NCBI GenBank assembly: GCA_964187785.1
Contig: OZ076409.1
Span: 54,190,001-54,250,000, forward strand
Direction: 5' to 3'
DNA: 60,000 nucleotides
Source of the DNA: Amphiscolops sp. MND2022
Lineage: Eukaryota
Part shown: one piece after another, positions 2,588 to 58,583 of the stretch
How positions within the stretch are numbered: the first letter of the stretch is position 1
How the letters are laid out: every line of letters begins with the position of its first letter
Made by a program: the position numbers and the translations under genes
The notes under the pieces: model-generated
Seen by the model: the letters and a program-made list of their open reading frames with translations, nothing else
Databases searched by the model: none
Told to the model about the DNA's origin: nothing

Positions 2588-3317
2588 TGTAACGGCAAGC
2601 TCTGGTACAGCAACATCAGCCGACATGTTTAGAAAATTTTGTCAAAAATTCGTTCAAATTTGACGTGGCACTCAAACATGCTCAAGACGAAGTACCTGCC
2701 AAAAAAAGCACCCCAGAAAAGCAGAAATCGCCGCTCGCGACGAACAAGCACCGGAGACGACAAAAAAGACGTCCCCGACGCATACAGAACACGGTATTGT
2801 GTCAATCTCTAGGAGATATCCATTACTACAGTAAAGGAAACCAGTGTTCCAGATGTTCGCCTGAGTATCCCTGCGGTATCCTGTGTGGCAACTAGCGCTA
2901 GCGCTGGGAAGCTGAGGTCAACTTTCATCAAATGACTCTGAACTCTTGATTTCTTGTTGTATTTTTCGATGTGGTAAATTAATATGCTCGAGAGCTGTTG
3001 TTTAACATCTGTTTATCCCATTTGGCGATTTTATCAGATTCTCCAATATTACGGTTCAACCTTCATCGATTTTCAGCCCAATTTTTAAAGGCTAGTTGAG
3101 CAGTGGTCTTGAGTCTTGCAAGATGCCTGTTACTTTTAGCAGTTACAGACTAGGACCAGGCCAGAGAGCGTCCTACAAGACGGTTCCCCCACCTTGGGAC
3201 TGGCTCCTTCGGAGGGAAAATGAGCTAGGGCCGCGGAGATCCAGGTCCCAGATTATATTCGCTGTTCTAGTTCCTCCACTCTACGTTGCGGTTCAAGCGC
3301 CAGCGCTTATCGTTACA
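2588..3317 (+). repeat. 5' LTR (730 bp)
   Basis: TGTAACG...CGTTACA terminal inverted repeat; direct repeat of 20746-21477. Confidence 0.97.
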
Positions 3318-3332
3318 TAGAAACTCATTTTT

Positions 3333-3350
3333 TGGCGACCACAGAGGGAT
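3333..3350 (+). promoter_or_regulatory. Primer-binding site, tRNA-Arg-like
   Basis: TGGCGACCACAGAGGGAT resembles the complement of the eukaryotic tRNA-Arg(TCG) 3' end (TGGCGACCACGAAGGGA). It is conserved in the minus-strand copies near 250-267 and 1420-1437. Confidence 0.75.
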
Positions 3351-4489
3351 CGTCTTGGGAAGCTTTCCCTAGCGGTTTTTAAAAGATCTGGCCCCCTGGT
3401 ATTCAGCGCCAAGCCCGTTTTCGACTCTGGACAGGAGAGAAGAGCAGAGTTTTACCTCTTTTTAGTCGTATTACGTCTTACTGGAACTGGGAGAGGCGTT
3501 GAACCAGAGAAAATGCCGAAGAAAGCGTGTTTTCAGGTGCGAAAATGGTATTTTTGGGCATTTTAGAAGGAAATCGCTCTTTATGTGTGATGTGTTGTGT
3601 ACCCATCAGCGGGTACCTTTTGGCAGGTGTAGAGGACCGTAGCACGTGGCTACGGGTGTCTAACAGGTTTTTTGAGCTTTTTTCAGCCATTTTATGCCAT
3701 GCAAGAGGGTAACGGATGGATGGTTGACCATGCTCCAGCGAGGCGAAGGAGGGGACAAATCTTGTGTAGCCTACTTCCTATTCCCATTTCTCGTGGAGAC
3801 GTCCTAGAGGCATGGTTTTTGGTGGACAGCAAGTACAACGACAGACGGTGCTAATGGTCCCACTCGCGTGTTTCTATCTGGTCTAGATGTGGAGAAATAA
3901 CGTGGTGAAGATGCACCCCCTATGACCAGATGAGTCGCTCAGATGGAGTATGGTTGGCGAAAATTTTGAAAATACACCTCTTTCGATGGAGAATCGTTGG
4001 TGCAGTTGGTGCAGGTCAGTGACGTTCTACTATAAATGTAACGACACCCTACGAAGTGCTTTTCTGCGAAAAAGATAGCACTTGGAAAAAAAAACCTCAT
4101 TTTGTGTTTTTTTTGGTGTTTTTCTTGGTTTCGAGCACTAGTGCTCACAGAAGCCAAGAAAGTTTGGTAGGAAGTGTTGAAAAAGCAGCTGCAAGGCTCG
4201 AGGAAGCCGGCACAAGGCACGAAAGGCGAGGTTGAAGCCTTTGATTGTGATAAAAGTGCCAATTTGATGCCGAAAAATGTGAAAAAAGTGGAAATTTGGC
4301 CAAAAAGGCACCCAAAATGTAAACGTACACGAGTGTGGAAGTGTAAAATGACAGTGTACGGCACTATCCCAAGTGTAGTTGACCCTCAGGATACTAATTG
4401 CAACTTTTGTAGCGGACTCAGGCAGCCTGGGGCTGATACAGTGCGAAAAACTTGTGATTTTTGGCATTTCTGAGTAGAGAAAGTGCATT

Positions 4490-4830
4490 AACCAAAAACA
4501 CCCAGAGCAAAGCTTATTCGAAAAGAGCGGGCTCGAGCGCTCTCATTTTCGATTGTAGCAGCAAAAACGACGCGTTGAGGTGAAAACCGCATGCAAAAAT
4601 TCCTTTTCAGCGTTGAGAAAAGTTGAAAAACCTTGATTTTTGGCCAGTTTCAGGAGTGTCAAAGCGCATCATTAAAACCTCTGGGGCACTCAGTGTTTTC
4701 GAGACCGGGGAGCCCGCGCGCACCTATTTTCTGTTTTTAAAATACAAACAACGCATTGTGGTGAAAACCGCGTGCAAAAATTCGTTTTCAGTGCTGAGAA
4801 AAGTGGAAAAACGCACTGAATTTGGTCAAT
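4490..4830 (+). repeat. Diverged ~181-bp tandem duplication in the leader
   Basis: gtgaaaaccgc(a/g)tgcaaaaattc...gagaaaagt at 4580 and 4761. Confidence 0.75.
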
Positions 4831-6046
4831 TTTCCACAAAACCGGACTGTCTCTGAGCTAGGGTCGGGTCATCGATTCCTGAACCCTAGCCAAAAAGTGG
4901 TTGCATTTTCGTAACCATTACAAAACTTAACGTTAGTGCCGAAATTTTGACGAGCGTATCGCTCACCAAAGTCGAGAAAAGCCCTCTGACGTTTCGACTT
5001 CAGAAAAGCACATAAAAGCCAAAAAAATCCAAAACTACAGGACTGTCAGTGCCTTATACCTAACGGGCACAACCAATTGAGGGTTTATCCCAGTGCTACG
5101 GATAGTGGGGCAACACGTTGGTCCGATTTTGCCCGCCGTATCACTTCCTGAGGTGATCCTCTTGGTCAAATTGTGAAAAAAGTCGTCAAAAACAGTGTTT
5201 TTTCGTGTACAACGTGCATAGTGGGTCGAAACCTCAAATAAGCGCTCGCGCTTCAATTCGACCATTTTAGTGGCATTGTAGGTGCCTGCTGGCATAGACT
5301 ACCAAGTTTGGTGCCGATCTGTCTGATACTTGTCGAGAAAATAGAAAAAACGTGGAGCCCAAAAAGGTGTCCAAAAAGGCAGTTTTTTCTTAATTTTTCC
5401 AAGTAACCCGGGTACCTCAGCCGAAGGGTGGGGCTATATTGCAGCCCACCATTGTAACTTGTGCTAGCTCTTACGTTGCTGCAGAGAATTTGAGCTTGCT
5501 AGCTTTTTCCAGTGGACCGCAATCTTGAAAAAGACGTGAAAAACAGTGTATTTCGGTACATAGTGGTACCGCACGTCTGTACCTAGGTGAAACTGTGTAG
5601 AAGGGGCGCAGCTCAAAACTGTGTTCGTTTTCGTAAACCTACGTGTACCTAAGATCTGCTGGTCAATTTTGGGCTTGATACCGCGCTTCTAGCGCACACA
5701 CGAGCCTGTTGAGTGTTGTTGTGCGATTTTTGGAAAATCCAAAATTTCTTCGAAATTCTTCCTGTGAGTGACCGGAGACTCTTGGCCCTAAACCAGGTTG
5801 ATTTTCTAGCCCAGTGTGCTTGTGGGAAAACGCTGTGCAATTTTGAACAGCCTACGAGCTCTGGAACGTGTTTCGAAAAATCTAGAACGTTGAATACCAT
5901 CAAAATTCTTAAGTGCTCACCGGGACGACCAAGGGATCAGCTTCGAATTGAAGACCCTGGTGCGTTCGGCGACCCAATTTGAGTCTTCCGAGTAATCGTG
6001 AGCGGTATCTCGATCGCTATTGATAAACGCGTTGGCCACCGAACCG

Positions 6047-9000
6047 ATGGCGGTATCCCATACCGGTTCACAATCATGGGTCACGATAGAGGGTTCGCGT
6101 TTTTCAGACGACATGTCTGACGAAGTCACTATCGAACAACAGCGAAAAGAGGATTTGGCCGCTATGGTTCTTCCCTCAGAGAACTCCAGTGTTGCTGAAA
6201 ATTCACGCCAAACCGAGCAGTGGGTCGACGAAACTTGCCGCGATAGAGCCAATGAAGTGGAAGAGGGCTGGCCCAATTCGAATGCAACCGATGAACTGGC
6301 GGCTGAGGAAGGGTGCTCGCGCGCACCCCCGGCTGGCGAAAGACAACTTGGCTCACAAACCGACATGGAGCAGGACCTCACTTACGTGGGAGGCATGAGT
6401 TACGCGCGACGGCGGGGACTCGGGACCAATCGAGGACCTACCCGGGTCTGTGCCTACGGGAAGCACAAGAAGGTACGACCACCTATACTACAGGTAGGTG
6501 AGCCACGTCAAGAGGTATCCCGTGTCAGGAGTATGACAGGCTCATTGGCCTCATCGCAACGGTCTTCAGTATACAAGGCAGCACTATTGGATGCCCAAGC
6601 CGAAACCCAACGGGCCCTAACAGGTCTGGCCAGCACTCGTGCTGAATGCAATGAGCAACATCTTGCCATCGTGGAGAACATTAAAGTGATGCAGACGACG
6701 ATGCGTGAGGGCCTGCAGGTCAGCGATCAATTGCGTACCGCGCAGAATGTGCAAAATGCTCGAGTGGACACATTGGGTCACCGGATAGGAGAGATGAATG
6801 ACACGTTGATGGCTCGCGAGTTGCGCGTGGAAACGCAGATCAACGACTTAAGCAATCAGATGCACACGGTACTCAATGCCATTGATGTCATGAGGCGTGA
6901 GAGGTCACTCCCGTGGCAGCCCAGTGCAAGTGGAGGCGTGCGGAATGGAGGTCCAGTCCGTATCTCGGAGCCGACGTGCCCGAGCCAGGTAGTGAAGTCG
7001 GAACTGCCGAGCGCGCTAAAGCCTAGCACTTCCAGGCCGGCAGTGCCTGCGCCCCGGAAAGATGAAGGAGTAGCCGGAAATTTGGTGATAGCCACGCCTG
7101 AGGCAGAGCGCAAGCCTGCACGAGTGCAGATGAGGGGACATCACGACTCAGCAGAATCATCGATGCCTTCTGCAATCCAGAGCACCACTCGAGATCAAGG
7201 CGTGGACCCGATGTCGACCATCTATCTTGATTCCTCGGTTGAAGTTGACCTATCTAACACCAAGGCAACGCTAGGCTCTCAAACCGAGGGAGCAACGTTT
7301 GCAATTGCCCCTATTTCAATGTCAGGACCAGATTCCATATACTGGACCGCAGACTCGTCAGCCGATCATGGACTGCCCTCGGGCACTCCCTGTGCTAGCA
7401 GCACTCGCAAAAAGGACGAAATCGCCGACCTGTCGATACAAGCCACTCTTGGTAGTCATGACAGGACGCGCGAGGGGGAGGCCAAGGCCGATGAAGGAGA
7501 AGCCATATCCCCCGAGCAGCTGAGATTCACGGCCGCCATATCAAAGGCGATGTCAAAAGAGTTAGCGCCCTTACTCGCCGGCAGAGACTTGGCTCAGGCG
7601 AGGCCCAATGTATATCGCGGGTCCAAAGACGGATCCATTGATGGGTGGATCCTTATTATTCAGAGATACCTGAAAAGAACGCAAACCAAGGTCTCAGCCG
7701 AGGACCAGGCTTGGAGCATCATCGGTCACCTTGAAGGTGAAGCCCGCAACTACATCATTAACAAAGCGGAATCCGAACGTGACACCCCCGAGAAGGTGTT
7801 CGAATTGTTATCCAGCCGCTTTGGCGCTGGAGGAAAACGTATGCAAGTGCGACAAGCTTTCCAGAGCCGCATTCAACAAGAGAAAGAAGACTGGATGCAG
7901 TATTTAGACGCTCTAGAGGGTCTTCGGAGTCAAGGATTCCCACAAGAGGCAATCACCACCAAGCGCTATGAAATCCTCCAGCGCTTCATGGAAGGTGTAC
8001 GAGACCCAGCGCTGAGGCGGGAGCTGGCCATAGTGTATGCCTCGGAAGTCTTCCTGACCGAGCCGCCTACGGTGGAATCCCTCCGCTTTACCACCCGCCA
8101 ATTGCAGCGCAACCGTCCAAAACCTAACCAATTCCCTCAACCCTATGACCCCAGACTAGCAATGAGGTCTCGACCTCATCCCTTCGCGCCACTACCCCCC
8201 AACAAAATGGTGTTACCACAAGGAGTAATGCCTCCCCCACCTGCGAGTAATGCTCCCCCCAATCAAGCAGCAGTGCAGCCTGCGGTACGCCTGCCCGTTG
8301 GCGCGTGCTATAATTGCGGTCAAGCTGGGCAATTTGCCCGGGACTGTCCCACCCGCGATCAAGCTCGCAAACCAGTGGCAGCTCCTGAACCAGAAGGTGT
8401 GAAAGTCACTGCTGAAGACGTAACTGATGGCGTGTTGGAGAGCTATCCAGGCATTCATCAGTGTGCGCACTGTGGAGTCTATGACCATGTGGATGTCCCC
8501 TGTGGTGAGCATTCTGAAGCCCCGAGGCCTAATGATGAATTGGCCTATAATCGATGGCTCGAGGTGGAATCCGCTGGTGTGGCCGCCCACACGGTACCCC
8601 TGGAAGATGATCGCGTATTAATGCTACACCTAGCGGAGCCCCCAGCGTTTCACCCCCCACTGATAGTTACATGTGGGACAAAGCAGATTCAGACGTGCTT
8701 GGAGCCTACAACGTTCGATCCACAAGGGAGAACGTTGATCTCGATTCATCTTATGCTGGCAGCCGAGCAGGTGCGTAGACCAACGCTAACCTTGGCGAAA
8801 CTCTGGGTTGAGCTATCTGTCCTCTATAACCGGATGGAATTGCCCCGCCCAAAACAGTGGCACGTCCCTGGAGAGTCGGAGACCCTGACTACGTACTCGC
8901 CAGTACCAGTCTGTGCAACGATGGACGGCGTGGACGTGAAGTTCGAGGCCTGTGTGGTGGTAGATGTGTTCCCACCCGGCTTATGCTTGGGACCTCAAGA

Positions 9001-10666
9001 GCTGAAATGCTATAATATCAACCACCAAGAACCCACCGGGGAAGCGCGAATAGATGAGCGTGCATCGCTCGTTGTCTCCTTTGTGGTGCCTCATGCAGCA
9101 CCTATCCCACTGCGAGGCCTGGTGGACACTGGTTCCGGAGTATCCATACTAACCTTCTCCGCCTTCAACCGGGTAGTTGCACGGACCGGAGCGGTCCTGA
9201 AACCCTATCAAATTGATTCGTACGCTCCCAATGGGAAGACAATAAAGACTTTCGGGTTGGCTGAGCAGATACGCTTCCAGTTGGGAGGGTATGAACTCGA
9301 AACCAGTTTCGTCGTGGTAGATGACGCAATGGGCGTGGAAGACTTTCTGTTTGGTCGAAACTTCCTCCGTTCCTACCAAGTCTTGGTAGATCTAACCTCC
9401 ATGAAGATAGTGGTGCGAGCACCTGTGAAGCCCGTCTGGCATCATGCACACACCCAGGTAGGTGACGCTTCGTTAACTACCTCCATTACCCTGGACAGTG
9501 ACCTAGTCCTACAGCCTTTCGAGCGTACAGTGGCAAAGGCCAAACTTGTCACCAACGCGCTTGAACCATTAATCTTCCAGACCGTTGCGCTTAACGCCTC
9601 GTTGTCTGATCCCTCATTGCAAAATACCATCTTTTTAGAGGACAGCGTAGCCACTGTCAGTGAGACAGGAACACTGTATGTGAGCCTGGTAAACCTCACC
9701 AGCAACCAGCAGCGTGTACGATGTGGTGCCCACCTAGGCACGGTAGTGCCTGTGTCTCTAGTATACCAGGCTGTGCCCCAAAAGCTGGATGCTACTGTGG
9801 AAGCTGACCACAAAACTGAAGCCGACAACAGTCGAGCAAATTTTGTTTATAAAGTGTACAGTGAAATGAATCTATCCACTGCTTCTGAGTTAACTTCTTC
9901 ATCTGAATTTGAGTTTTTGTCTTCTACGGATCCAAGTGAAGCGGGGCTTTCGGAGCGCGAGATTCGCAAGCGCACCGATCCCGACCTATTGGCCCCGATC
10001 CCTGGGCCCGATTCTCAATTGCAAGAAGTCAAGAACCTCTGGGGCGCTAGCGCCTGCGAGTCCTTAGACAACATTCTTAACGAGTTTGATGACCTATTCA
10101 TGAAACGCAAGGCGGATATTGGTCGCTGTACCATTGCTAAACACACCATAGAGGTAGAGCCTGAGGCGGTACCGCACCGTGAAGGTGCTCGCAGAATGTC
10201 CCCCGAAAAGGCTGAACGAGCCAACCAGGAGGTTCGGAGCTTATTGACCTTAGGGATGATACAACCTTCACTGTCCCCATGGTCAAGTGGTATCGTAAAG
10301 GTAAAAAAGAAAAGCGGGGAGTTACGCTTTTGCTGTGACTTCCGACCGCTGAATGAAGTAACCATTAAGGATGCCTACCCCCTGCCCCGTATCGATGAAA
10401 GCCTGGCGCGACTGGGCAATGCAAAGATCTACACCAGCATAGATCTTGCCTGGGCTTTCTGGCAAATTCTCTTGCGAAAGGCGGACCGCCACAAAACAGC
10501 CTTTGCCTGTGAGTTGGGACTCTTTGAATGGCGAAGAATGCCATTTGGCTTGTGCAATGCATCAGCCACCTTCCAGCGAGCAATAGCGCGAGCGCTGCAA
10601 AAAAATAGTCAATCGCAAAGGCAGCATGGTCATGGCATACATCGACGACATAGTTATAGCAACTGA
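6047..10666 (+). CDS. gag-pol: Gag-Pol part 1: coiled-coil N-terminus, capsid, Zn knuckle, pseudo-protease, aspartic protease, dUTPase-like domain, RT N-half
   Basis: Capsid-like DGWILIIQRYL...LEGEAR; CYNCGQAGQFARDC; LVDTGSGVS; RFCCDFRPLN, YPLPRID, DLAWAFWQ, RMPFGLCNASATFQR. First ATG at 6047. The frame is lost at the A7 run at 10599-10605. Confidence 0.93.
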   Translation: MAVSHTGSQSWVTIEGSRFSDDMSDEVTIEQQRKEDLAAMVLPSENSSVAENSRQTEQWVDETCRDRANEVEEGWPNSNATDELAAEEGCSRAPPAGERQLGSQTDMEQDLTYVGGMSYARRRGLGTNRGPTRVCAYGKHKKVRPPILQVGEPRQEVSRVRSMTGSLASSQRSSVYKAALLDAQAETQRALTGLASTRAECNEQHLAIVENIKVMQTTMREGLQVSDQLRTAQNVQNARVDTLGHRIGEMNDTLMARELRVETQINDLSNQMHTVLNAIDVMRRERSLPWQPSASGGVRNGGPVRISEPTCPSQVVKSELPSALKPSTSRPAVPAPRKDEGVAGNLVIATPEAERKPARVQMRGHHDSAESSMPSAIQSTTRDQGVDPMSTIYLDSSVEVDLSNTKATLGSQTEGATFAIAPISMSGPDSIYWTADSSADHGLPSGTPCASSTRKKDEIADLSIQATLGSHDRTREGEAKADEGEAISPEQLRFTAAISKAMSKELAPLLAGRDLAQARPNVYRGSKDGSIDGWILIIQRYLKRTQTKVSAEDQAWSIIGHLEGEARNYIINKAESERDTPEKVFELLSSRFGAGGKRMQVRQAFQSRIQQEKEDWMQYLDALEGLRSQGFPQEAITTKRYEILQRFMEGVRDPALRRELAIVYASEVFLTEPPTVESLRFTTRQLQRNRPKPNQFPQPYDPRLAMRSRPHPFAPLPPNKMVLPQGVMPPPPASNAPPNQAAVQPAVRLPVGACYNCGQAGQFARDCPTRDQARKPVAAPEPEGVKVTAEDVTDGVLESYPGIHQCAHCGVYDHVDVPCGEHSEAPRPNDELAYNRWLEVESAGVAAHTVPLEDDRVLMLHLAEPPAFHPPLIVTCGTKQIQTCLEPTTFDPQGRTLISIHLMLAAEQVRRPTLTLAKLWVELSVLYNRMELPRPKQWHVPGESETLTTYSPVPVCATMDGVDVKFEACVVVDVFPPGLCLGPQELKCYNINHQEPTGEARIDERASLVVSFVVPHAAPIPLRGLVDTGSGVSILTFSAFNRVVARTGAVLKPYQIDSYAPNGKTIKTFGLAEQIRFQLGGYELETSFVVVDDAMGVEDFLFGRNFLRSYQVLVDLTSMKIVVRAPVKPVWHHAHTQVGDASLTTSITLDSDLVLQPFERTVAKAKLVTNALEPLIFQTVALNASLSDPSLQNTIFLEDSVATVSETGTLYVSLVNLTSNQQRVRCGAHLGTVVPVSLVYQAVPQKLDATVEADHKTEADNSRANFVYKVYSEMNLSTASELTSSSEFEFLSSTDPSEAGLSEREIRKRTDPDLLAPIPGPDSQLQEVKNLWGASACESLDNILNEFDDLFMKRKADIGRCTIAKHTIEVEPEAVPHREGARRMSPEKAERANQEVRSLLTLGMIQPSLSPWSSGIVKVKKKSGELRFCCDFRPLNEVTIKDAYPLPRIDESLARLGNAKIYTSIDLAWAFWQILLRKADRHKTAFACELGLFEWRRMPFGLCNASATFQRAIARALQKNSQSQRQHGHGIHRRHSYSN

Positions 10667-12722
10667 GACTGTAGAAGATCACATGGCGCGTTTGCGCGAG
10701 GTTTTTGAATGCCTCCGCGAAGCTGGCTTCAGGATGCGCGTAGCCAAATGCGACTTCATGAAACCAGAAATCAAATATCTGGGACGCGTGGTCTCAGCAG
10801 AAGGTGTCAAACCGGACCCGAAAGCTGTTGCCAAACTGCGCGATTGGGACATCCCCCGCAACAAAACTGAAATGCAAGGTTTCCTGGGATTCGCTAATTA
10901 TTATCGTGAATTCATCCCGTGGCATGCCAAGCTGGTGGCGCCCCTCCACGCCGTTACGGGACTGAATGCCACATTTGCATGGGGTCCTGACCAACAAAAA
11001 GCCTTCAACGAAATCAAGACAGCATTGATCGAGGCGACTGCGCTCGCGCAGCCTGATTCCGAAGGAGAGTTTGTGCTGGACACCGATGCCAGCGCCGTTG
11101 CCATTTCCGGTATCCTACACCAGTGGCAAGGAGCTCCAGGAGAGCGACGTCTACGACCGATCATATACGGCAGCAAGAAACTGACCACAACCCAAGCCAA
11201 ATATGGGGCACCCAAGCTGGAGATGTTTGCTGCCTACTACTTCATTATCAAGTACCACAGCTACCTTTGTCCCCGAAAGTTCACCCTGAGAGTCTACAAC
11301 CAAGCCCTATCCTGGTTGAAAACCTACTCCACGGACCAAGCATTGATTGGACGTTGGATTATGACACTGGACAGGCATCACTTTCGCGTGGAACACAGAC
11401 CACGAACGCAACACCGCAATGCTGATGGCTTGAGCAAACGAACCAACGATTATCGATGCCGAGAACAGCAGCTTGCGCAGCTGCCAGCTACTGGAGAGCG
11501 TTGGAACTTCCTCTCGGCCGAGGAATTCGACAACCTCCCCATAGCCCCATGGTTCGACCTGCAAGGTCGAATCATTCCAAATCATCCTGACCTACCACCG
11601 CATCTGCAGAACTTGGAGCCTAAGGCTCCTGACCAAGCACTCCGTGTGCTTCGCCGTGTGCAACGAGCGAACAAGCGAGAACGACAGGCGAAGGCGCTAG
11701 CCGCGCCTTTACCGCCTCAGCCTCCACCCGTGCTACAGAAGCACGAGGACTTCTATCCAGACTATCCTGAAGACTGGATAGACGTCACCACTGAGGCGAG
11801 CGAGGATTACCTGCTGCCAACACATGCAGTAAATGTCCCCTCGCGCACCATCTATTCTGTGACGGGAACGAGTAACGCCATGCTACAGAACTCTCCTGGT
11901 GGCGTGCGCGAGTCGATCATGGCCCTCAAGGACATCGACACCGAGCTCCATGAACACACACATACCGTGCACGGGATCAAGGACTTGGTTTTAGCCCAAA
12001 ACCGCGATGTCCATGTGCTAGCGCTGAAAAAGCTCGTGCAGTGTGAATCCCTAGATAACGATGTGTTTCCCGAGAACGTGCGTGAGTTCGCACGTAATTA
12101 CTTCCGCCAGAAAAAGGATCTCTTGTTCATAAACAAGAATGATGTCCTTTGCGTGCAATACTCCCCCACCCAACGCCCACTGCACGAACGTCCGTGCATG
12201 ATCATAATGCCTCAACTGTACCAGCACGAGATTCTGTTCCGTGCGCACGACGCAATGGGACACCAAGGTATCTCAAAAGTGGTAGCTCGAATTCAAGAGC
12301 GCCACACTTGGCCCGGCATACAGCGCAGTGTCGGTCGATACGTCGGCCAATGCCTCACCTGCCAACAAGTACGTGACAAGCCTGGTGACGTACGATTCCA
12401 ATTGAAAAACATTCAGAGTGGCTACTTCAACGAGTTGGTCCAATATGACCACTTAAAAATCTGCCCCTCTGATAACAACAACACTGGCATTTTGGTCATC
12501 ATCGACCATTTCTCTAAATTTGCAGAGGCAGTCCCTTGTAGTCATCATGACTATGACGCAGTGACCACCTCACGATTGCTGCTGCAGAAATGGTTTGCCC
12601 GCCACGGCACCCCCGCTCGCATGCAATCAGACAATGCTCCCAACCTTACTGCTGAAGTCTCTAATGAGTTCCTAAAGGCAGCTCACGTCACTAAGGTGAC
12701 CTCCACTGCCGGACATCCCTGA
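10626..12722 (+). CDS. pol: Gag-Pol part 2: RT C-half, RNase H, long tether, integrase N-terminal part (ends at a premature TGA)
   Basis: YIDD, YLGRVVS, FLGFANYYR; LDTDAS...NADGLS; HHCC (HDAMGHQG...CLTC); YDH and SDN of the DDE triad. Confidence 0.95.
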   Translation: MVMAYIDDIVIATETVEDHMARLREVFECLREAGFRMRVAKCDFMKPEIKYLGRVVSAEGVKPDPKAVAKLRDWDIPRNKTEMQGFLGFANYYREFIPWHAKLVAPLHAVTGLNATFAWGPDQQKAFNEIKTALIEATALAQPDSEGEFVLDTDASAVAISGILHQWQGAPGERRLRPIIYGSKKLTTTQAKYGAPKLEMFAAYYFIIKYHSYLCPRKFTLRVYNQALSWLKTYSTDQALIGRWIMTLDRHHFRVEHRPRTQHRNADGLSKRTNDYRCREQQLAQLPATGERWNFLSAEEFDNLPIAPWFDLQGRIIPNHPDLPPHLQNLEPKAPDQALRVLRRVQRANKRERQAKALAAPLPPQPPPVLQKHEDFYPDYPEDWIDVTTEASEDYLLPTHAVNVPSRTIYSVTGTSNAMLQNSPGGVRESIMALKDIDTELHEHTHTVHGIKDLVLAQNRDVHVLALKKLVQCESLDNDVFPENVREFARNYFRQKKDLLFINKNDVLCVQYSPTQRPLHERPCMIIMPQLYQHEILFRAHDAMGHQGISKVVARIQERHTWPGIQRSVGRYVGQCLTCQQVRDKPGDVRFQLKNIQSGYFNELVQYDHLKICPSDNNNTGILVIIDHFSKFAEAVPCSHHDYDAVTTSRLLLQKWFARHGTPARMQSDNAPNLTAEVSNEFLKAAHVTKVTSTAGHP

Positions 12723-15404
12723 ACTCAAGGCTTGGTGGAACGGCAAAACCGCACCCTCTTAACCTTGCTGCGAGTCTTTTGCTCACGTCGCATGCGCGAC
12801 TGGGACCAATGCTTAGATGAAGTAATCGGTGCCTATAATTCCACCAGGCACGCCACTACAGGCTTCTCGCCCTATATGTTAACAAGGGGTGTTGAGAAAG
12901 CAATCCCCCTCACCTTTTTATACCCTGAATTTGCAGCCAAGTCCTTCGACACGCATGAAGCATAGGTGGATCATGTGTTGGCTCGCCAACAAGAAATTCA
13001 CGACTTGGTCCGGCGCAATACGCACCAAGCCCAATTACGCCAAAAATTGAAGTATGATCGTGCTATTCGAGCACGAGCTTACCAGCCAGGAGAGCTTGTC
13101 TGGGTTTTTTGCCGCTACGTGCCGCAAAAAGGCTCTCCCAAACTGATGCGCGCCTGGCGTGGCCCGCACAAAATAGTACAAGTCTTTCAAGAAGGACGTG
13201 TCTACGCATTGGACACAGGCCAAAAGGTTCATTTTGAGCGCCTGAAACCTCATCATAGTGGGCCCCTTGAGCTCGCCACCGCGCAAGCGGACAGCGGCGA
13301 AATAGTGGTACTCATGGACCCTGACCCTGAACGTTCTGTTGAAGCAGTTGACGACGATAAGTCCCAGCCTTCATATAAAACTGAACAACTACTTTCAGAA
13401 GCATCTGACGTGTCCTTGCCTTCGCGCAAGCAACATTGGATGGATACCCGTCTGCGCACAAAGTTACGTGCTGGAGGTTCCCGCATGCACTACCAGCAAT
13501 TCGACTACTCAACTTCGGGCACTGACGACGAGTTGTCCGAAATCATGCTACCGGTACCTCCTGATCCCGTTGATGCTGATCGCAGGGAGCCCGAACCCCA
13601 ACTCCCTTCAGACCAATCAATATCACCTACCCATCATCTGCCTCAACTATTCTCCGACCATGAGCGCGCGCGCTCTCCGTCACCACGAATATCCTCTCCC
13701 GAAAAACAGCCCTCCTTACTGAGAACATCGGCCCCACTACTGACAAATCCATCACTGACGAGTTTCCTCAACAACTATCCCATTTGGCCGGCCGCTCCTT
13801 CCCTTCCTCTGAAATCCGCCACTGAGGATGACGACGCTCAGTCCAATGTCCCTACTCTTCCCACAACATTGCCCGGAGCGGGGACCGCTCCTTTTTTCAA
13901 AAGGGGGAGGGGGAGACCACCCAAAACGCGAAAAAGGCTGGTCAGAGCGAAGGCAAGAACGAGGAAGAAAGAAACAACAACAATAATGCCGTCGGAAACA
14001 GTAATACCGACCGAGACTTCTGAGGTTCCCCGATACCAGCTGAGAAGCAGGCGGCAGCCACGCTATAAGTGCGGGACCTGTGGGCTGCGAGACTGTGTTT
14101 GCTTGCTAGCCGTCAATGAGAACCGGAGGGTTCCCACTGGAGCCCGGGGAGTCCCTCCAGAGCGGGGAGAAAATCTAGTACATCGCCTTACGGTGAGAGC
14201 TGAAAAGACTTATTCCTCCCTGGAACGACACGGAGACCATCCCGTGGATACTATTATGGAAAAGTTATCACTACCTGGAGTAGCGAAGGCCCCATGTCCT
14301 CGATTTAAGGAGTGGACTAGCGACGGAAAAGGGTTAGAGTTCACCCTCGCAACGGTGATGCCCCCAGTACCCAGCAATATTGCGTTTGGATCCTTCAACT
14401 TCGAACGGGAGACTGTGCAAATGGTCCGATGCATCACCGGTGATCTTCTCTGTGACAAATACGGAATTCACGTGGATCTGGGCGGAGTATACAGCCCAGC
14501 GCCGCACTGGTGTTTGCTGGTCACTGCTCCACGAGTGGAGGCAATAGTGGAACCATTGCACCTGCTGTCCTTCTTGGAAGGTCTGAGGACCCTCACTACC
14601 GCGGACTTGATACTTTGCTTCCACATCATAGACTGGTATCGTGGCAAAGTGAAATTCGCGAGGTGGTTGGAGCTGATCATCACTTGTTTCCCCAATTATC
14701 CTCGCATTAGATTGCTGGACGAGTGGACTCATACTTTCGAGATTCCGCTTCCTCCGAAAGCCGTTTTGAGCACCCTAGACACATGGGTTAGGGCGGGCAG
14801 TGATAATCGAGCGATGCCACGCTCGGTATGGCAAGACCTGGCTGCAATCCAGGGGCGTACGCCCCGCGTATGCTTGCCTGCCGACAATGGGCCGGGGAGA
14901 GAGATTATCTACCCGGGAATCCTGCATCCAGCCCCAACAGAGCACCTCTCATATGATGTGACTGATTTTCTTCAAGTAGAAGGTGATATGGTGTTAGCGT
15001 GTCCCGCTGACCTAGAGACCAACTCAGCTGCCCTACGGTACGTGCTACGAGAATGCGGCAAGGAGAACGTATTCTCCTTACGTCCTAAGGTGGGGGAGAT
15101 TCTCACCATTCCTCCCGATATCAACCCAAACCCCAATCAGAGTATTCACTTGCTAATAATCAGAGTAAACCAGCGTGCGCCGCTGCTCGCAGACGACTAC
15201 CTACGTTGTATGACGCACTTGATACAGCGTTTGATGGAGAAGGGATCCACGAGGGTCCACCTACCTATACTGGATCCAGAGCGACCCGCCCTCTCATTGG
15301 TAAACTTATACCATACCCTAACGAATTTGCTGGAGGGCACTGGCATTCACGTAGTGCTGCATAACCGCGTGTATGTGTCCATTCTGAACATAGGGCTGGA
15401 GTAG
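12723..15404 (+). pseudogene. pol: Gag-Pol part 3: integrase C-terminus plus long extension (AT-hook, Cys motif, two macrodomain-like domains); in-frame stop at 12963-12965
   Basis: VERQNRTL, YNSTRH...GFSPY and the GPY/F-like WRGPHKI; KRGRGRPPK; CGTCGLRDCVC. Same frame as part 2 across TGA 12720 and TAG 12963. Confidence 0.9.
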
Positions 15405-15662: not shown

Positions 15663-15683
15663 CCTAACGGTGATCCTTTTTAG
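15663..15683 (+). promoter_or_regulatory. Putative branch point and 3' splice acceptor for ORF3
   Basis: CCTAAC...CCTTTTTAG ending 12 nt before the ORF3 ATG. Confidence 0.6.
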
Positions 15684-15695
15684 AACTATGATATA

Positions 15696-18600
15696 ATGGC
15701 TTATTACCCCAACAACACGGTACCTATTTCCACGACGGGACCTCACGCCAATAGGCCTCAAGAATTGCCTGCGCGAGCGCAGAGGACTAATCAAGTCCAA
15801 TACGTAGAAGAGCGATTGAGGAACGGCCTCTCACCGTTAGCGGTAGCGGGCGTGGCCGCCCTACTTACCCAACTAGACACAATGCAGACGCTGCCGGGCG
15901 TATCCGTGTCTCTGGTGACGGAAGTAGCCGGTTACCGTCGCACCCTAACCTGCCAAAACAATGCGTGGGATGGCCACGATCTGACGCACCAGTTCCTGGA
16001 TGAACGTTCTACCACAATGCTCGGGCCCAGCCAAGGCACGAGATTCGAGCAAGAAGCCTCACTGTGTATGGTGCCTGCCAGCGTAGCAACAATGCCTCCT
16101 CCTCAGATGGTCGCACTGCCCCCACCAGCACCAAATCCAGTACCAATGACGCCAACTTATTCCGGTTCGCCTGCCTTTGGAACCTCATATCGAGCACCAC
16201 ACATGGTACTGCAAACCACTACTAATGCACCAGTCTCTGATCGGGATCCCTCGGGGTCCCGGTTACCACCCATACCCAACCCAGAGCTGACGGGAAGGAG
16301 TACCAGCGAACAGGCCGTAATTGTGGCCTTGCAAGCAGTGGCGAACTATCCCAACTCCACCGATTTCGTCCGTGCCGTGGAGCAGAGAATCCCTGGTTTA
16401 GCCACGTATCTGCAAGCTGCTGCTCAGCCCGCGGGCTGTGACCCTCCTGCTCCCCTAGTCGAAACGGCATCTATGGATATGGAAATTGTCGCTGGACCGA
16501 GTAACAGCGCAAGCGCTGCCTCTGGCACACGAGAAGAAGCGGGGAGAAAGCGGCTAACTGAAGAAACTGTCTCAGTTACCCCAGCTGGCTCGGTAACCGA
16601 GAGCCCAACTAGTCGTCCCCCTCCCGACAAGCGCGCTGATGTACCTCGGCCCCAGCTGAAGAGTGTGGTCATCCCTAGGCCCCCGTACCGGGTAGGTCAT
16701 CTAGGCCGAAGCGCACCTCAAATGTCTTTAGCAGACGCGATCGAACAGTATGGAGACCCGGATGCAGGCTCGGAAGTGAGCTCTGTGCCCTCGGGCATCA
16801 ATCCAATAGATATGTCCCTGGAGATACCTGAGACGGTGGAGGAAGCCCATCCTCCAGCTTTCCTCCCTCCATCTGACGACGTATCCGGCTCAGTAGTCAC
16901 CAATGATAGCAAACGCATTTGGATAGCGGCTGAGCATCTCTACCCCAGTCAATGCGCTATCAAGAAAAGGACCCCTCCAACTGAAACGGAGCAAAAGGAG
17001 ATCAACCGGACAACGATACCGGCGCAAGTCACGCGTTCGCTCCGCCCCCGTGACGCAGACATGTCGGAGCAGGCTTGGGAACAGCGTGCTCGAGAGCAGC
17101 TGCCTATGACAACCAACGATTACATGGCGCCCCTGCAACACAATATCACTGAGCAATTCCCCGCACGGTATGTGTTGCGAGAAGGTGAGACATGGGAGGC
17201 GAACGCCCGTTACGCTCGCAACCTGAGATCTTTGAAACCCCTATTGAAAGCAGCTCTGCAGCGCGCGCGCTACTGCATGGCAGTTGATTCTACTTGCCGA
17301 AGTGACCTCCCTATTGACAATTTAATGCCTGACGTGCTGGTGCTAACTATGCCCCTGTCTCGCTTCGCTGAGGTCGCTGAGATGGTTGGAGCCATATACG
17401 ATCCAAACTTAAGAGGATCACAAAAGGAACCACCCCCACAGCGAGTGATCTTTGCCAATCTTCTTGATCACATGGCTTGCGAAGGATTGCTGCACGACCT
17501 GGACGCCATAATGTCCAATGTCCGACGACTTGGAGACATTGACGCCCTGGTAAATGAGGTGGTCGGTGCAATGGAACGTGCCGCAGGGATCCTTCGGGGT
17601 CGTCTGGGAGCGCTCGCGCTCTTTGTATCCCCACCAGGATTCATGTATTGGCCACGAAGTCTGCAGCAGTTCGTCTACATTCTGCTGGAGGTGTGCAAGG
17701 CGCGCAGAGTCGAATTCGCCATCTGTGCACCGAACTTGCGCGTGGACCGAGAGGACCTGCGCCCAGATACCTTATCGTATCCAGCCTTCTTTGCCGCCGT
17801 ATCTAGAGCGCTTGTGGCTATAGAACGCTCGGGAAACGCCCAGCTAACCATTGACGATGCTATCCTCTATGATTATGGAATGCGGATGGGCAGATTGGCC
17901 TTTGACCTTGACGGCAACCGCATTGCCCGAGAATCTAATGTAACCGAACGAGAGGCTGTTCGCCGGTATAATTGGCTAGTGCGAAGAGATAAAGAAATCC
18001 CAGTGCGCGCAGAATTAGCCGACCTGACAAAACAAATTGGTGCATGGCCTGCAGCGCGCACCGTCGAGAGAACAATTCCTCAGATCCACTTCGCCTCGGG
18101 AATCGAGCCCGTGAAGCTGCCTGTAGGGCTGCGGTGTATCGTAGCAATGGAAGCAACAAACCTGAAAGCAGAAGTCGACGCCGCAGCCACCACTTATGCT
18201 TATTGGTACCAGACTAGGTTTGCCACCAGAACTCTGGCAGAAGTAGCTCGAGAGCTCAATTGTCCATTGGAAGCCTTCTGTACCAGTCTTGGTCTAGGAT
18301 GGAACCTAGAGGTACTAACTTCTGAGTTCTCGCTGACCTCTACGCAAACGGACAAGCTGCTAGAAACAATTGGAGAGGCAACCGTCGGAGAAATACTAGC
18401 GCTCGCGCTAGCGATGGGCCCAACCAAGTTTGTAGCCGGACCACTGGCCTTTTTAGTCGACATAGTAATTGCCTGCGACCTCACCGTGTTCTACAGCTAC
18501 TTGGTCCTGGCACAAGGACAACTACGCAGCCTGACCCGTTGGGGACACTTGATGACTTCCAAAGACCAGCAAGACTATTCCGCCCAACTGGAGCGCATGC

Positions 18601-20003
18601 GTGCGTCAATCCAGCACTGGCTAAACTCCACCCTGGTGTTCGCCTCTGGCCTATTCGTGGGCGCAGACCAATCCCAACCACTACATAACTCCGACCAGCA
18701 GATCTCACGGGAAACGGCAGGATTCCCCATGCCGCAGCAGATTGCAGATCTCACCCTGGCTGAAGTAGAAGATTTTGTGGCAGCAATGGCTCCTGTCTTG
18801 GCCCCTATCTTTGGCGCAGTGGGCGTGTGCCGATACCCAACAAAACCATTGGCAACAGCCGTCCAAGTGCACATGGCCTCCTTCAGTACCTACCTGCGGG
18901 GCCATCCCTCACTGGCGTATCCAAGGGTAATACATGCAGTGCTGAGTGGTGAGGTGCCGCATGGGTACACGACCATAAAATCCGAAAGAGAGTTGGAGGA
19001 GAACCTGATGGGTTTGCTGCGCGCGCGCACCAGGAATGCATGTCCTCTACCCCGAGAGCATGGACCTGTGAACTGGTATTCCGCACCTCTCAGTTTGGAA
19101 GGGGTCCCCTTTAGGTTCCCCTGGAGTCAAGAGTTCATAAGGAAGGCGATTCGCGCCAGCACTAGTGCTGGTCCACCTGTAGACCCTTTATACTGCTTCA
19201 AATGCATCGCCTTCCCAAACCGCTATTGGAAGGAGCCGTTAGGTTGGCCCAGGGCAAAACCCGTTGGACGCGCCCCAGAGGTGTTCAACCGCCAAATCCA
19301 ACACTTGGAGTCAGCCCAGATCCCAGGATTGATTGAAGGCGCTGCTCAGATCAGGCAGAGGAATCTTCAATCCCGCGTTATCCCGTTCCCCAGGAAGTCG
19401 GCATGGAAACCCACGGGAAAGATGACCATGTCTGGAGATATGTCCATCGTCCAGCATGATGAAATAAACTCCGTGTTGGGCTCAACAGAACGTGCGAGAT
19501 GGGAAGAGTACTGTCTGGAGTTGGAAATTGCAAGCTTCCCTAAATGGAAGAGAGCTTGCGAGCTCTGGAGCCAATCTGGATGGATCTCACGCCGTGTAGC
19601 ACTAGCGGTAGAAGGTAGAGCAGAGATAGCGAGACAACAGGCGTTCGCGCCTACCATGCTCGCACCAACGATGGCGATGTCTTTGGATCGGCCCATCTCT
19701 CAACCGATCACCATTAACCTTCCAACCCATAACTTGGAGCCAAACCCAGTTGGCCCGTCTTCGTCGCGAACGAGCCCTCAGTCCTCGCAGCAGCAGTCCG
19801 GAGAGCACACTGCCGAATTGACTCCCAATGCAGCACTAGTGCAGCCTATTGCCGAGTTGTCGCTCCCCGAAAGTCCGTCGGACTCTGAAACAGTTACCAC
19901 AGAAGTTTCTCCCCGACGTCGAGCGTCAGTGTCGACTGATAACCCAGAACAGAACCTAGATGATGCCACTAAAGAGCGGACCCGACGCAGTTCAGCTCAA
20001 TAA
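15696..20003 (+). CDS. ORF3 of the retrotransposon, 1435 aa: Pro/Ser-rich ends, central SGNH-hydrolase-like domain, uncharacterised helical region
   Basis: Uninterrupted 4.3-kb ORF between pol and the 3' LTR. SGNH-like blocks at about 17268-17822. No evident signal peptide. Confidence 0.88.
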   Translation: MAYYPNNTVPISTTGPHANRPQELPARAQRTNQVQYVEERLRNGLSPLAVAGVAALLTQLDTMQTLPGVSVSLVTEVAGYRRTLTCQNNAWDGHDLTHQFLDERSTTMLGPSQGTRFEQEASLCMVPASVATMPPPQMVALPPPAPNPVPMTPTYSGSPAFGTSYRAPHMVLQTTTNAPVSDRDPSGSRLPPIPNPELTGRSTSEQAVIVALQAVANYPNSTDFVRAVEQRIPGLATYLQAAAQPAGCDPPAPLVETASMDMEIVAGPSNSASAASGTREEAGRKRLTEETVSVTPAGSVTESPTSRPPPDKRADVPRPQLKSVVIPRPPYRVGHLGRSAPQMSLADAIEQYGDPDAGSEVSSVPSGINPIDMSLEIPETVEEAHPPAFLPPSDDVSGSVVTNDSKRIWIAAEHLYPSQCAIKKRTPPTETEQKEINRTTIPAQVTRSLRPRDADMSEQAWEQRAREQLPMTTNDYMAPLQHNITEQFPARYVLREGETWEANARYARNLRSLKPLLKAALQRARYCMAVDSTCRSDLPIDNLMPDVLVLTMPLSRFAEVAEMVGAIYDPNLRGSQKEPPPQRVIFANLLDHMACEGLLHDLDAIMSNVRRLGDIDALVNEVVGAMERAAGILRGRLGALALFVSPPGFMYWPRSLQQFVYILLEVCKARRVEFAICAPNLRVDREDLRPDTLSYPAFFAAVSRALVAIERSGNAQLTIDDAILYDYGMRMGRLAFDLDGNRIARESNVTEREAVRRYNWLVRRDKEIPVRAELADLTKQIGAWPAARTVERTIPQIHFASGIEPVKLPVGLRCIVAMEATNLKAEVDAAATTYAYWYQTRFATRTLAEVARELNCPLEAFCTSLGLGWNLEVLTSEFSLTSTQTDKLLETIGEATVGEILALALAMGPTKFVAGPLAFLVDIVIACDLTVFYSYLVLAQGQLRSLTRWGHLMTSKDQQDYSAQLERMRASIQHWLNSTLVFASGLFVGADQSQPLHNSDQQISRETAGFPMPQQIADLTLAEVEDFVAAMAPVLAPIFGAVGVCRYPTKPLATAVQVHMASFSTYLRGHPSLAYPRVIHAVLSGEVPHGYTTIKSERELEENLMGLLRARTRNACPLPREHGPVNWYSAPLSLEGVPFRFPWSQEFIRKAIRASTSAGPPVDPLYCFKCIAFPNRYWKEPLGWPRAKPVGRAPEVFNRQIQHLESAQIPGLIEGAAQIRQRNLQSRVIPFPRKSAWKPTGKMTMSGDMSIVQHDEINSVLGSTERARWEEYCLELEIASFPKWKRACELWSQSGWISRRVALAVEGRAEIARQQAFAPTMLAPTMAMSLDRPISQPITINLPTHNLEPNPVGPSSSRTSPQSSQQQSGEHTAELTPNAALVQPIAELSLPESPSDSETVTTEVSPRRRASVSTDNPEQNLDDATKERTRRSSAQ

Positions 20004-20730
20004 ACCCAGCCGCTAATGGGAGCGTTCGCGCTCCCTATACCCTCATAAACTGCCAACAAACAGTGCCTCAAAACTTCTCATCCAGAACGGTGCTATAGTA
20101 CAAAGTGCAATTTTTGTTCTTAGTTATGGTTATATAATTAGTGTACCATTAGTGTTGCACTGGGTGTACGGCCAATAGAGTACGCCTGCCCCAATGGCTT
20201 GAGTGACCAAGCAGAAAGAAAAGAAAACTATTGTTCAAAAAAACTATCATTTTTGTTGCGCACCGTTCGCGGTGTTTTTGAGTTGTCTTATCCCTCTTGA
20301 TTGCGTTTCTTTCTAGTCTAGTGTTCTTCATCAATCTGGTTGTTCACCGTAAGAGCCCCCAAGCTCTAAAAAAAGTTTTTGATCGCCTGAAATGAACTGA
20401 AGACTTGTAGTCTCAAATGGTAAGGAAAAGAAATTTTAGCTGACTTTGGTCGCAAATAGGTTTTTACACAAGTTGACTGCCCAAACGAATTTTAACCGGC
20501 TGAAAACTGTAGCTCTCGAGCTGGTGCTAAAACCTCGTTCATGTTTTGTACGAATAGCTAGGCAGTAAGTTCTTTTTTTTCTCGTAAAAAAACTGCAAAG
20601 TCGACCAAAATTGTTGCCGAAAAACAAGGACTCGTCCTTGTTCCCCGATGTGTGGATGATGGTTCCCAGCAGTCACTGTGATGCAGTTCCCAGACGATCC
20701 AGACGCCGCTTGCCAGGGACGACAAGCCAG

Positions 20731-20745
20731 GAGCCTGGGGAGTGA
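20731..20745 (+). promoter_or_regulatory. Imperfect polypurine tract
   Basis: gagcctggggagtga directly before the TG of the 3' LTR. Confidence 0.6.
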
Positions 20746-21477
20746 TGTAACGGCAAGCTCTGGATGTACAGCAACATCAACCGACATGTTTAGAAAATTT
20801 TGTCAAAAATTCGTTCAAATTTGACGTGGCACTCAAACATGCTCAAGACGAAGTACCTGCCTAAAAAGCACCCCAGAAAAGCAGAAATCGCCGCTCGCGA
20901 CGAACAAGCACCGGAGACGACAAAAAAGACGTCCCCGACGCATACAGAACACGGTATTGTGTCAATCTCTAGGAGATATCCATTACTACAGTAAAGGAAA
21001 CCAGTGTTCCAGATGTTCGCCTGAGTATCCCTGCGGTATCTTGTGTGGCAACTAGCGCTAGCGCTGGGAAGCTGAGGTCAACTTTCATCAAATGACTCTG
21101 AACTCTTGATTTCTTGTTGTATTTTTCGATGTGGTAAATTAATACGCTCGAGAGCTGTTGTTTAACATCTGTTTATCCCATTTGGCGATTTTATCAGATT
21201 CTCCAATATTACGGTTCAACCTTCATCGATTTTCAGCCCAATTTTTAAAGGCTAGTTGAGCAGTGGTCTTGAGTCTTGCAAGATGCCTGTTACTTTTAGC
21301 AGTTACAGACTAGGACCAGGCCAGAGAGCGTCCTACAAGACGGTTCCCCCACCTTGGGACTGGCTCCTTCGGAGGGAAAATGAGCTAGGGCCGCGGAGAT
21401 CCAGGTCCCAGATTATATTCGCTGTTCTAGTTCCTCCACTCTACGCTGCGGTTCAAGCGCCAGCGCTTATCGTTACA
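20746..21477 (+). repeat. 3' LTR (732 bp)
   Basis: Differs from the 5' LTR by about 5 substitutions and 2 small indels (counted by eye). Confidence 0.97.
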
Positions 21478-21559
21478 GTGTTACCCATAGAATTCAACAC
21501 ACATAAATTTAGCTTCATTCCAGATGTATTTGTGGAGATTTCTAGACTTTTTGATTGAC

Positions 21560-24100
21560 CCCAAGGACCCCATAATGACCCAAAAATGACCCAAAAATGA
21601 CACCAAAAATGCAGAAATTGGCAAAAAAATTCCAATTTTTTAACGTTTTGCGGCAGTTCTTGTCAATTTTTTGATAGATATTGTGATTAGAATGTTGAAA
21701 TTGTTCAACAAGGTACGAACGCGTTGTCCAATAGTCTTCTATGAAAAAATAATTGCTGTTTTCCAAATAAAAAACATCTCAAATTGACATTGAAAACGAC
21801 AAAGAAGCCAAAAATGTCCCAATTTTACCGTTTTTAGGCGACTTTTGTCGAATTTTTGATGGACTTCGTGGATTAGAATGTTGGAAATGCTCAACATGGC
21901 ACACATTCGTTGTCCAGTAGGCTCTTCCGAAGAGCTAATAGCTGTTCTCCAAATGAAAAAGATCTCAAATTGACACCGAAAATGACAAAAAACCCAAAAT
22001 TTTCCAAATTTCAAAAGTTTTTTCAATTTCTGTCAAAATTTCGACAGACTTCTTGAATTGGAATGCTTAAAAGAGTCAACAAGGAAACAATTTACTATCC
22101 AGTAGGATTATTTGAAGAGTTTGTTGCAGTTATCTGAATGAAAAGGTCTCAAATTGGCACCAAAAATGACAAAAAGCACAATGTTTTCAAATTTTTAAAG
22201 TTTTTATTCAATTTCTGTCAAAATTTCGACGGTCTTCTTAGATTGGAATATTGAAATGTTTAACAGGGTGAAAAAAAGAAACGGTCGGTTGTCCAGTAGT
22301 CTTTTATGAAAAGATAACTGCAGTTTTTCAAATGAAAATCGTCGCAAATGTACACCGAAAATCACAAAGAAGTCAAACTTTTCCAATTTTCAAAATTTTT
22401 ATGCATTTTTGGGTAAAGTTTGGACAGACTTCGTAGATTGGAATGTTTGAAAGAGTGAACAAGGGAACGGGTTGGTTGTCCAATAGTCTTTTATGAGAAG
22501 ATGATTGCAGTTTTTCAAATGAAAAATCTCTCAAATTGACACCAGAAATGAAAACCAGCCCAAATATTTACAATTTTCAATAATTTTCATGCATATTTCC
22601 CCACATTTTTGACGGACTTTGTGGATTGGAATAGTGAGAAGTGCCAAAAAGGAAGAAATGTGATGTCCAATTTGCTTAGAGAAGAGATAAATGAAGTTTT
22701 TTAAATTGAAAAGATTTGGGGTTGACATCGAAAAACACAAAAATTCGAAAGTTTACCGATTTTCACTATTTTTTTTCGATTTTGTCAAACTATCGACAGA
22801 CGTCGTGGACTAGAACGTTGAAACCCCTAAACAATGGAACAAATTGTTGCTTCGGTGAGCTTTCGTCAAGTGATTGTCGTAATTTATTTTAAAAATTTCA
22901 AGTTTCGTCGTTTTCGATGCTGTTTCTGAACAATTATCAAAAGATTTCGTTTCAAGACAAAAGAACGAGCTATGCAAAATTTTTTTGAAAAGAACGTTGC
23001 AGCGTTTTGCTTCACAAACACTTCAGAATGACCCCAAATGGGTGGAAAATTTTCACCTTCGTTTTTGTTCATCTTATGTACTTTTTGAATCGTTTTTGAG
23101 TCAGATTGTTGGCAATCGTTCAACAGAAATTGAACTGAATATCCAGTAGTTTCCCAAAGAAATATTTGCCGACTTTGGTTGGAAAATGGCTCAAAATTGA
23201 CCGCAAATCTCAGAAAGGTCCAAATGTTTGCCAATTTCTGACGTTTTCAGTGAATTTGTTTGAGATTGGAAATTTTTGGTGAGATAAAAACTCCAAAAAC
23301 CTCCAGATGAAAACACTAGGTCCACAGGATATTTTTCGAATGAAATTGGCATATTTTCTTCAGAATAACCCAAACAATGGAAGAACTCAGAGTTTTCAAG
23401 TTTGTACATTTTTAGGCTATTTTTTTGAACAATTATTGAGCTACTTCCTTGCACAGAATGGGTTCGAAAACTCAGCAATAAATAATCCTGGTATCCAGTA
23501 GGCAATTGTGAAGATTTAACTGCACTTTATTGCTGGAATTGGTCAAAATCCATGACACAACAGAAAATCACGTTTTTTGACAAACTAATCCCAATTTTTG
23601 TTCATACCACGAAAGTGTTTGAAGAATAGAATTTCCATTGACCTGAACGTTGAAACAATAAAGTTATCAAATTGGAATTTGCGGAAAAAATGGGATGAAG
23701 TTCATCGAGTTTACTACAAACGTGTCAAAACTTCCGAGTTTCCCTTAATTTCGAGAACATAATCCCAATTTTCGACCCAATTTTCAGGATTGAAGCGCGT
23801 AGCTACCAGTAGTGTTTCGAAAATTATCAGACAAATTTATTTGCAAAACTTTCAAAAACTTTTGTTGAAACGTAAATTTCGACGTTATTTGTGCAATGTT
23901 TAAAATTCAATTAGCTCCAAGCAAAATCACTAGATATGGAGTAATCCTTCCAAAGGAATTTGTTTCGAGCTATTTCGTGGGTTAGAATGCTGTGAACAGT
24001 CAGCAACAACTAAACTCTGCGTCCAGTAGGCTTATTTTGAAGAGACATCTGTATATTCATGTTAGGAAAGTTCCTCAAACTGACCCCAATTTGTAGAAAA
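21560..24100. repeat. Diverged AT-rich tandem repeat, ~185-190-bp unit
   Basis: Recurring tcca(g/a)tag, gatt(a/g)gaatg and ctcaaattgacacc at about 21726, 21911, 22098, 22291, 22478 and 22666, decaying toward 24 kb. Confidence 0.8.
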
Positions 24101-57497: not shown

Positions 57498-58334
57498 CTG
57501 AAACAATTAAGTTTAGTCTGAAAAGCGAAAAAAAAATTCAGAACCAGTAAAGCATACCAGAAACATAAGGGATGTGATATCTTCAGATTCAAAATGATTT
57601 TTCTACCCTGAAGAGGTTCTCATGTGCTCTTAATAATGTATAGCTTTCGCATAAACACATACCATGTAGATTTGTCATGGCACATTGGAATCCTTATACA
57701 TAAAAGGACCGTGCGCATCGAAACCAAAAAGGTAATGGTCTACGTATGTATGGCCCAGGTTACAGAGGGGGCTTGTCAACAAGGTGTGGAAGGTGTCAAT
57801 ACGCTGCAAGCTGCAGAGCCTCCTTGCAGTGTAAGTAACGGTCCCGTGAAAATAAATTTGACAACCTCGGTAAGTGGAGGTCTAATTTATAAAACAGAAC
57901 ACCGGATCGCAAAGTATATGCTCGTCTATAAAACAGCGTATCACAATTGAATTGCTCGTTATGGAATTACTGAGAGCTTGAAAGCCTCCCCTCTTCGACG
58001 ATTGCGCTGATTGGAATGAAACTTGACTATGCTAACGTGAACATTAAGATGCTACATGTGTGGTCGCGAGCATCACTCGTCTTTGCTACATTGGGACCCA
58101 AGATCGCGGGTCTCAATCGAGAAAAATAACTACTTGGTAAATCAGAAACAAGATTGATTTCAGAATTGAGCCATCAGATTTTTCAGACCTACAGCCCAAG
58201 TTTTAACATTACACGTTTTTATTATAAAATTTCATATATTTTGTCAAACTTCATCTACAAAAGGTCTCAACGGGTGTTAGATCCGAGGAAGAACTTTTTA
58301 ATACTATTTAATGCGCGAACAACAACCACGAACA

Positions 58335-58543: not shown

Positions 58544-58583
58544 AGTCTTTGTTCTCAATTGAGTCTTTGTTCTCTTCATTGAG

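Follow-up and report, generated by a model that had tools for sequence, protein, structure and literature searches.

Among long terminal repeat (LTR) retrotransposons, the closest described parallel to the gene treated here comes from bdelloid rotifers, whose Vesta elements carry a third open reading frame (ORF3) for a GDSL protein with intact catalytic residues, for which a targeting to membranes has been proposed (Rodriguez, Kenefick and Arkhipova 2017, PMC5408684). Here we report on the ORF3 of a 19-kb Ty3/Gypsy LTR retrotransposon, one of a lineage carrying this gene, found in a stretch of 60,000 nucleotides of Amphiscolops sp. MND2022 (hereafter the window: assembly GCA_964187785.1, contig OZ076409.1, positions 54,190,001 to 54,250,000, forward strand). 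As in Vesta1, for whose ORF3 an auxiliary or membrane role has been proposed (PMC5408684), a protein of the SGNH fold occupies the position of env, shows no envelope (Env) features and is present in some families only. However, the Vesta ORFs span about 1.3 kb, keep their catalytic residues and show, within their genome, no significant departure from neutrality (PMC5408684), whereas the window ORF3 is 4.3 kb long, multidomain, devoid of the catalytic His and strongly constrained by purifying selection between subfamilies; the two are likened by description rather than by sequence comparison. SGNH proteins in this position with intact catalytic residues were therefore already known from rotifer elements as published (PMC5408684), and what is new here is the size, a His-to-Arg replacement fixed under strong selection, an extra helical domain, and a series of intact, degenerate and absent domains.

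Other systems offer partial parallels. The GDSL derivatives of the Penelope-like Athena-L elements lack the catalytic residues, as here, but belong to another class of retroelements and are grouped with PC-esterases (PMC5408684), the likeness being again one of description. The ORF1p esterase of ZfL2-1, CR1 and RTEX elements shares the fold and provides a model for lipid and membrane binding, although ZfL2-1 is a non-LTR element whose esterase lies upstream of pol, keeps an active triad and dimerizes through a coiled coil (PMC3905857). Amphibian Ngaro elements, which have Gag, reverse transcriptase (RT) and RNase H, bear an additional 3′ SGNH ORF of unproven function after the recombinase (bioRxiv 10.1101/2021.08.05.455354); they are tyrosine-recombinase elements, and their SGNH domain, unlike that of the window, is recognised by sequence. 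An earlier note on this DNA had implied that SGNH genes lack precedent in LTR elements, which the published Vesta ORF3 contradicts (PMC5408684), and Athena-L and Ngaro carry SGNH domains too. The CERV protein of Caenorhabditis elegans Cer1 is a non-Env accessory protein of an LTR element made from a spliced mRNA, as we propose for ORF3, but it is nuclear and required for export (PMC10309623), and the comparison is by description. The OSK domain of Oskar differs in being part of an insect host gene with a proposed bacterial origin (PMC7250577), and it matches the window domain no better than ordinary hydrolases do. The words esterase, SGNH and GDSL do not occur in the main text of a survey of env-carrying Ty3/gypsy elements (PMC13524379).

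The window ORF3 and its conserved parts are laid out as follows.

15663..15683, + strand: splice-acceptor-like site made up of CTAAC, a pyrimidine run and AG; 12 nt separate its end from the ORF3 ATG
15696..20003, + strand: ORF3, 1,435 aa, fully open, in the env position 3′ of pol
15783..16013, + strand: conserved segment near the N terminus, aa 30-106, with 39% identity to family D2 (E 7e-14)
16545..16634, + strand: RKR and SPxSxPPxDK motifs, aa 284-313, within a low-complexity linker
17262..17840, + strand: predicted SGNH-fold domain, probably a pseudo-esterase, aa 523-715 (S532 at 17289, R689 at 17760)
18081..18650, + strand: all-helical domain, aa 796-985, confidently predicted, without structural match
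18774..18830, + strand: conserved hydrophobic stretch, aa 1027-1045, followed by RYP

The fold of the central domain, which had been proposed from the order of its motifs, is borne out by structure prediction: aa 523-715 are modelled as a three-layer alpha/beta arrangement with a five-stranded sheet, the fold of the SGNH/GDSL superfamily, and in Foldseek the model matches the ZfL2-1 esterase (PDB 4C1B) with E 0.017. Oskar OSK (PDB 5A4A) ranks 42nd, with some 40 other matches above it and 6% identity. The model of aa 716-1330 is half low-confidence, being confident mainly for the helices of aa 796-985 and for a pair of helices late in the model, and as a whole it gave no significant match to solved and viral structures.

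Catalysis in SGNH hydrolases depends on S, G, N and H, and the neighbouring Asp residues are structural (PMC10792757). These positions were read from an alignment in which 11 family representatives were set beside three intact SGNH domains, the register of block V being set by sequence alignment. The block I nucleophile (D531-S532 in the window) is Ser in 11/11, none of which has the preceding Gly. The oxyanion Gly of block II is absent in the window and present in three of the 11 (the P0181 group). In block III, N588-L-L590-D591 aligns with G-I-N-D of P0353, a homologue described below, and with G-T-N-D of the intact domains; the oxyanion Asn stands at the aligned position in a single representative, not the window's. 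As the earlier note had read it, the catalytic His of block V (E686-D-L-R689-P) is replaced by Arg, and this holds for all 11 representatives, of which none has Asp and five have Glu at the acid position. The intact S, G, N and H of a Vesta1-type protein (PMC5408684) are not found in the window ORF3, and mutation of the catalytic His abolishes the esterase activity of ZfL2-1 (PMC3905857). The domain is thus likely a pseudo-esterase that has lost catalysis.

In the 1.07-Gb genome holding the window, ORF3 keeps the same position in families A, B, C and D2; of about 2,700-3,200 candidates, families A, B and C each account for 142-150 scored matches. Identity to the window falls in parallel for RT (B 93-96, C 80-81, D 63-68, E 52%) and for the ORF3 core (B 82, C 45, D2 28, E 22%), which argues that ORF3 was inherited with pol as an integral gene and is not a nested insert. 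Strong purifying selection acts on it: in pairwise comparison, the whole ORF3 has a dN/dS of 0.091 and the SGNH domain one of 0.055, at dS about 0.2; two other pairs gave 0.136, and no segment exceeds 0.23 in the unsaturated comparisons with the window. Pieces of the window gag-pol compared with family B gave 0.026-0.074, with dS saturated. The contrast between an open ORF3 and a broken pol (in the window, RT has one frameshift near 10.6 kb, and stops lie at 12720-12722 and 12963-12965) had been offered as an argument for function, but it does not hold, since lesions are alike in both genes (25 in 32,590 codons of ORF3 vs 68 in 81,288 of gag-pol, p=0.82; 27 of 30 fetched copies, with the three frame references omitted and the segment used for finding copies excluded); selection appears in dN/dS instead.

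The RT tree joins families A, B and C to D (100/100), and both to family E (100/99). ORF3 occurs on both sides of this tree and in D2, the sister of D1, D2 being linked to clade D via its Pol tail (83-88%) and not via RT. Family E was searched for in the genome of the window and not found there. The alignment of its ORF3 homologue P0353 (2,275 aa) with the window ORF3 spans 490 columns (Prob 97.6, E 3e-12), and P0353 has, at its C terminus, about 1,200 additional residues that match nothing in Pfam. P0313, a family-E record of a pol-ORF3 fusion, has an intact domain (GDS/G/GTND/DGIH; Pfam GDSL_2, E 9e-7, 30 bits, slightly below the 32.9 cut-off) and continues, without change of frame, into sequence that shares 96% identity with the beginning of P0353. 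Together, these two records suggest a tandem pair of SGNH domains, one active and one degenerate, from which the domain of the window may descend. In the six D1 loci examined (L152-L156, L158; four of them with only 1.5 kb of flank) there is no ORF3, and pol runs into a match of the post-ORF3 region of D2 (L157), leaving about 2 kb from pol to the LTR end vs 5.7 kb in D2. The simplest reading is that D1 lost ORF3. As D1 has nevertheless amplified, with many near-identical copies and long open gag-pol frames (of the top 46 D1-like matches, 33 belong to frames of at least 2,990 codons, counted by eye), ORF3 appears dispensable in cis. The lineage therefore gives natural contrasts between an intact plus a degenerate domain, a degenerate one alone, and none.

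The esterase fold has been taken up by several classes of retroelements, and in this one it has been retained by selection after the likely loss of catalysis, which points to a binding role. The reading that we favour, if only tentatively, makes ORF3 an accessory protein of the cytosol, in which the dead esterase pocket would take up a lipid or another anion and thereby attach particles to membranes. The gene would be expressed from a spliced RNA, its His-less domain would hold a lipid or other anionic ligand without cleaving it, and the domain so loaded would tie the particles of the element to internal membranes for transport. Production from a spliced mRNA is suggested by the acceptor-like site just before the ATG, which is the best-conserved 24-mer of the pol-ORF3 spacer (21/24 vs 152/291 overall, between the window and one family-B copy), and family C has a pyrimidine run and CAG at the equivalent position. 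Binding and trafficking we infer from the fixed Ser/Arg pair, the hydrophobic stretch and the analogy with ZfL2-1, whose protein attaches to anionic liposomes but not to oligo-A RNA (PMC3905857). The hydrophobic stretch (Kyte-Doolittle 19-mer 2.11 in the window, 1.41-2.56 in 8/8 families) is a candidate membrane-touching or buried helix, and burial is considered because the most distant families carry charged residues there. At stake are the function of retroelement esterases and the way in which LTR elements without Env move within and between cells.

A possible but less probable role is that of a regulator handling RNA, in which the dead domain would bind genomic RNA as OSK does, and would export or localise the unspliced RNA like CERV. 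The acceptor-like site speaks for it, as does the RKR motif, which together with SPxSxPPxDK is a possible nuclear-import or phosphorylation signal and occurs in 5/10 scanned sequences; the distant families, however, lack it. The domain is near neutral (21 K+R, 23 D+E; pI 5.3-9.0 across families), which gives no support for an RNA-binding surface like that of OSK, itself far down the structure matches, and D1 amplified without ORF3, although a spliced element minus ORF3 may not need an exporter. It is unlikely that ORF3 instead serves as a protein-binding scaffold that works against silencing or restriction by the host, the pseudo-enzyme being a docking surface or decoy and the macrodomain-like tail of Pol acting on the same front. 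Its large multidomain build with low-complexity linkers and the Pol tail would suit this role, and action in trans would fit an ORF3-less subfamily thriving beside ORF3-bearing ones, but no partner is known and arms-race interfaces are not expected to show the strong purifying selection seen throughout ORF3. Unlikely as well is an extension of the membrane reading, where ORF3 would be a non-fusogenic transmission protein of a new kind replacing Env, formed of a pseudo-esterase of tandem-SGNH origin and the helical domain; along membranes it would move capsids out of somatic or nurse cells and into the germline, and the ORF3-less subfamilies would then be comparable to env-less superspreaders.

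We consider it improbable that the domain remains enzymatic through a rewired active site, such as Ser532 paired with His592 of the block III 'DH': the Ser is invariant (11/11) and His592 is kept in 26/28 diverged closer fragments, but it is Asp in the P0181 group (3/11), the oxyanion Gly and Asn are mostly lost, and ZfL2-1 does not tolerate the loss of its own His. Finally, an unusual envelope glycoprotein, comparable to the viral haemagglutinin-esterases, which carry an SGNH domain, is scarcely credible, as the earlier note had also judged, for the env position, the acceptor-like site, one hydrophobic 19-mer and an ORF3 loss in a high-copy subfamily resembling env loss are set against the absence of a signal peptide by hydropathy (best N-terminal 12-mer -0.16), of a C-terminal anchor (the top five hydrophobic 19-mers start at aa 1027, 913, 888, 45 and 547, none after aa 1045) and of an internal furin-like site (the sole R-x-K/R-R lies at aa 1428).

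The order protease, RT and RNase H, then integrase, between TG...CA LTRs, with a primer-binding site (PBS) and a polypurine tract, is that of Ty3/Gypsy elements.

2588..3317, + strand: 5′ LTR (TGTAAC...GTTACA), preceded by GTG at 2585-2587 (3-bp target duplication)
3333..3352, + strand: PBS-like 20-mer beginning with TGG, 15 nt past the LTR, common to families A, B and C
6047..15404, + strand: gag-pol (PNMA-like capsid, zinc knuckle, protease, RT, RNase H, integrase)
14967..15359, + strand: macrodomain-like extension at the Pol C terminus (hhalign against the Pol tails of relatives, Prob 97%, E 6e-11)
20727..20745, + strand: polypurine-tract-like stretch
20746..21477, + strand: 3′ LTR, followed by GTG at 21478-21480

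Besides the unmatched helical domain, the lineage brings two further peculiarities, the macrodomain-like Pol tail and 3-bp target duplications. The tails of the related Pol proteins P0339 and P0296 match Pfam Macro; just upstream of the window's tail there may be a second, more decayed copy. LTR-element target-site duplications usually measure 4-6 bp, but here they are of 3 bp in 24 of the 25 elements with both ends placed (32 examined, L086-L145), one of the 24 sitting in a T run where it could be 4 bp; a literature search on 3-bp duplications in such elements turned up no paper. The PBS-like 20-mer of families A, B and C has its start 15-16 nt past the LTR, and a few bases lie between the G run and the 3′ LTR, features which may reflect unusual cDNA ends, possibly tied to the short duplication. 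Compared with one guessed tRNA pattern only, the 20-mer gave no match.

The 5′ leader (3317-6047) is very long, 2.7 kb without a long ORF, and is a candidate structured RNA or packaging signal, with identities between A and B of 85-95% at 4.7-5.9 kb, and to C of 57-77% at 4.7-5.7 kb. A long integrase extension contains, at about 13900-13960, KRGRGRPPK, which we take to be AT-hook-like; similar motifs occur in families C and D.

Elsewhere in the genome, several repeated families together account for at least 39 canonical SGNH matches, and GDS/GxND/DxxH is intact in many of these (L046-L075). An ORF3 fragment labelled as a hypothetical protein in NCBI (P0159), on an 816-bp contig of a Bacteroidota metagenome bin, is likely host DNA within that bin. 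Within the window, tandem remnants of a related LTR in opposite orientation, about 90% identical (164-478, 1334-1641, 3122-3438), lie just upstream of the element, and a 186-bp degenerate tandem array (21584-23247) adjoins its 3′ LTR. A separate, broken BEL/Pao LTR element with DUF1759, Peptidase_A17 and integrase occupies 49473-56493, its repeats being 98% identical, and near the end of the window (58332-59469) there is a perfect 343-nt inverted repeat together with a 105-nt hairpin.
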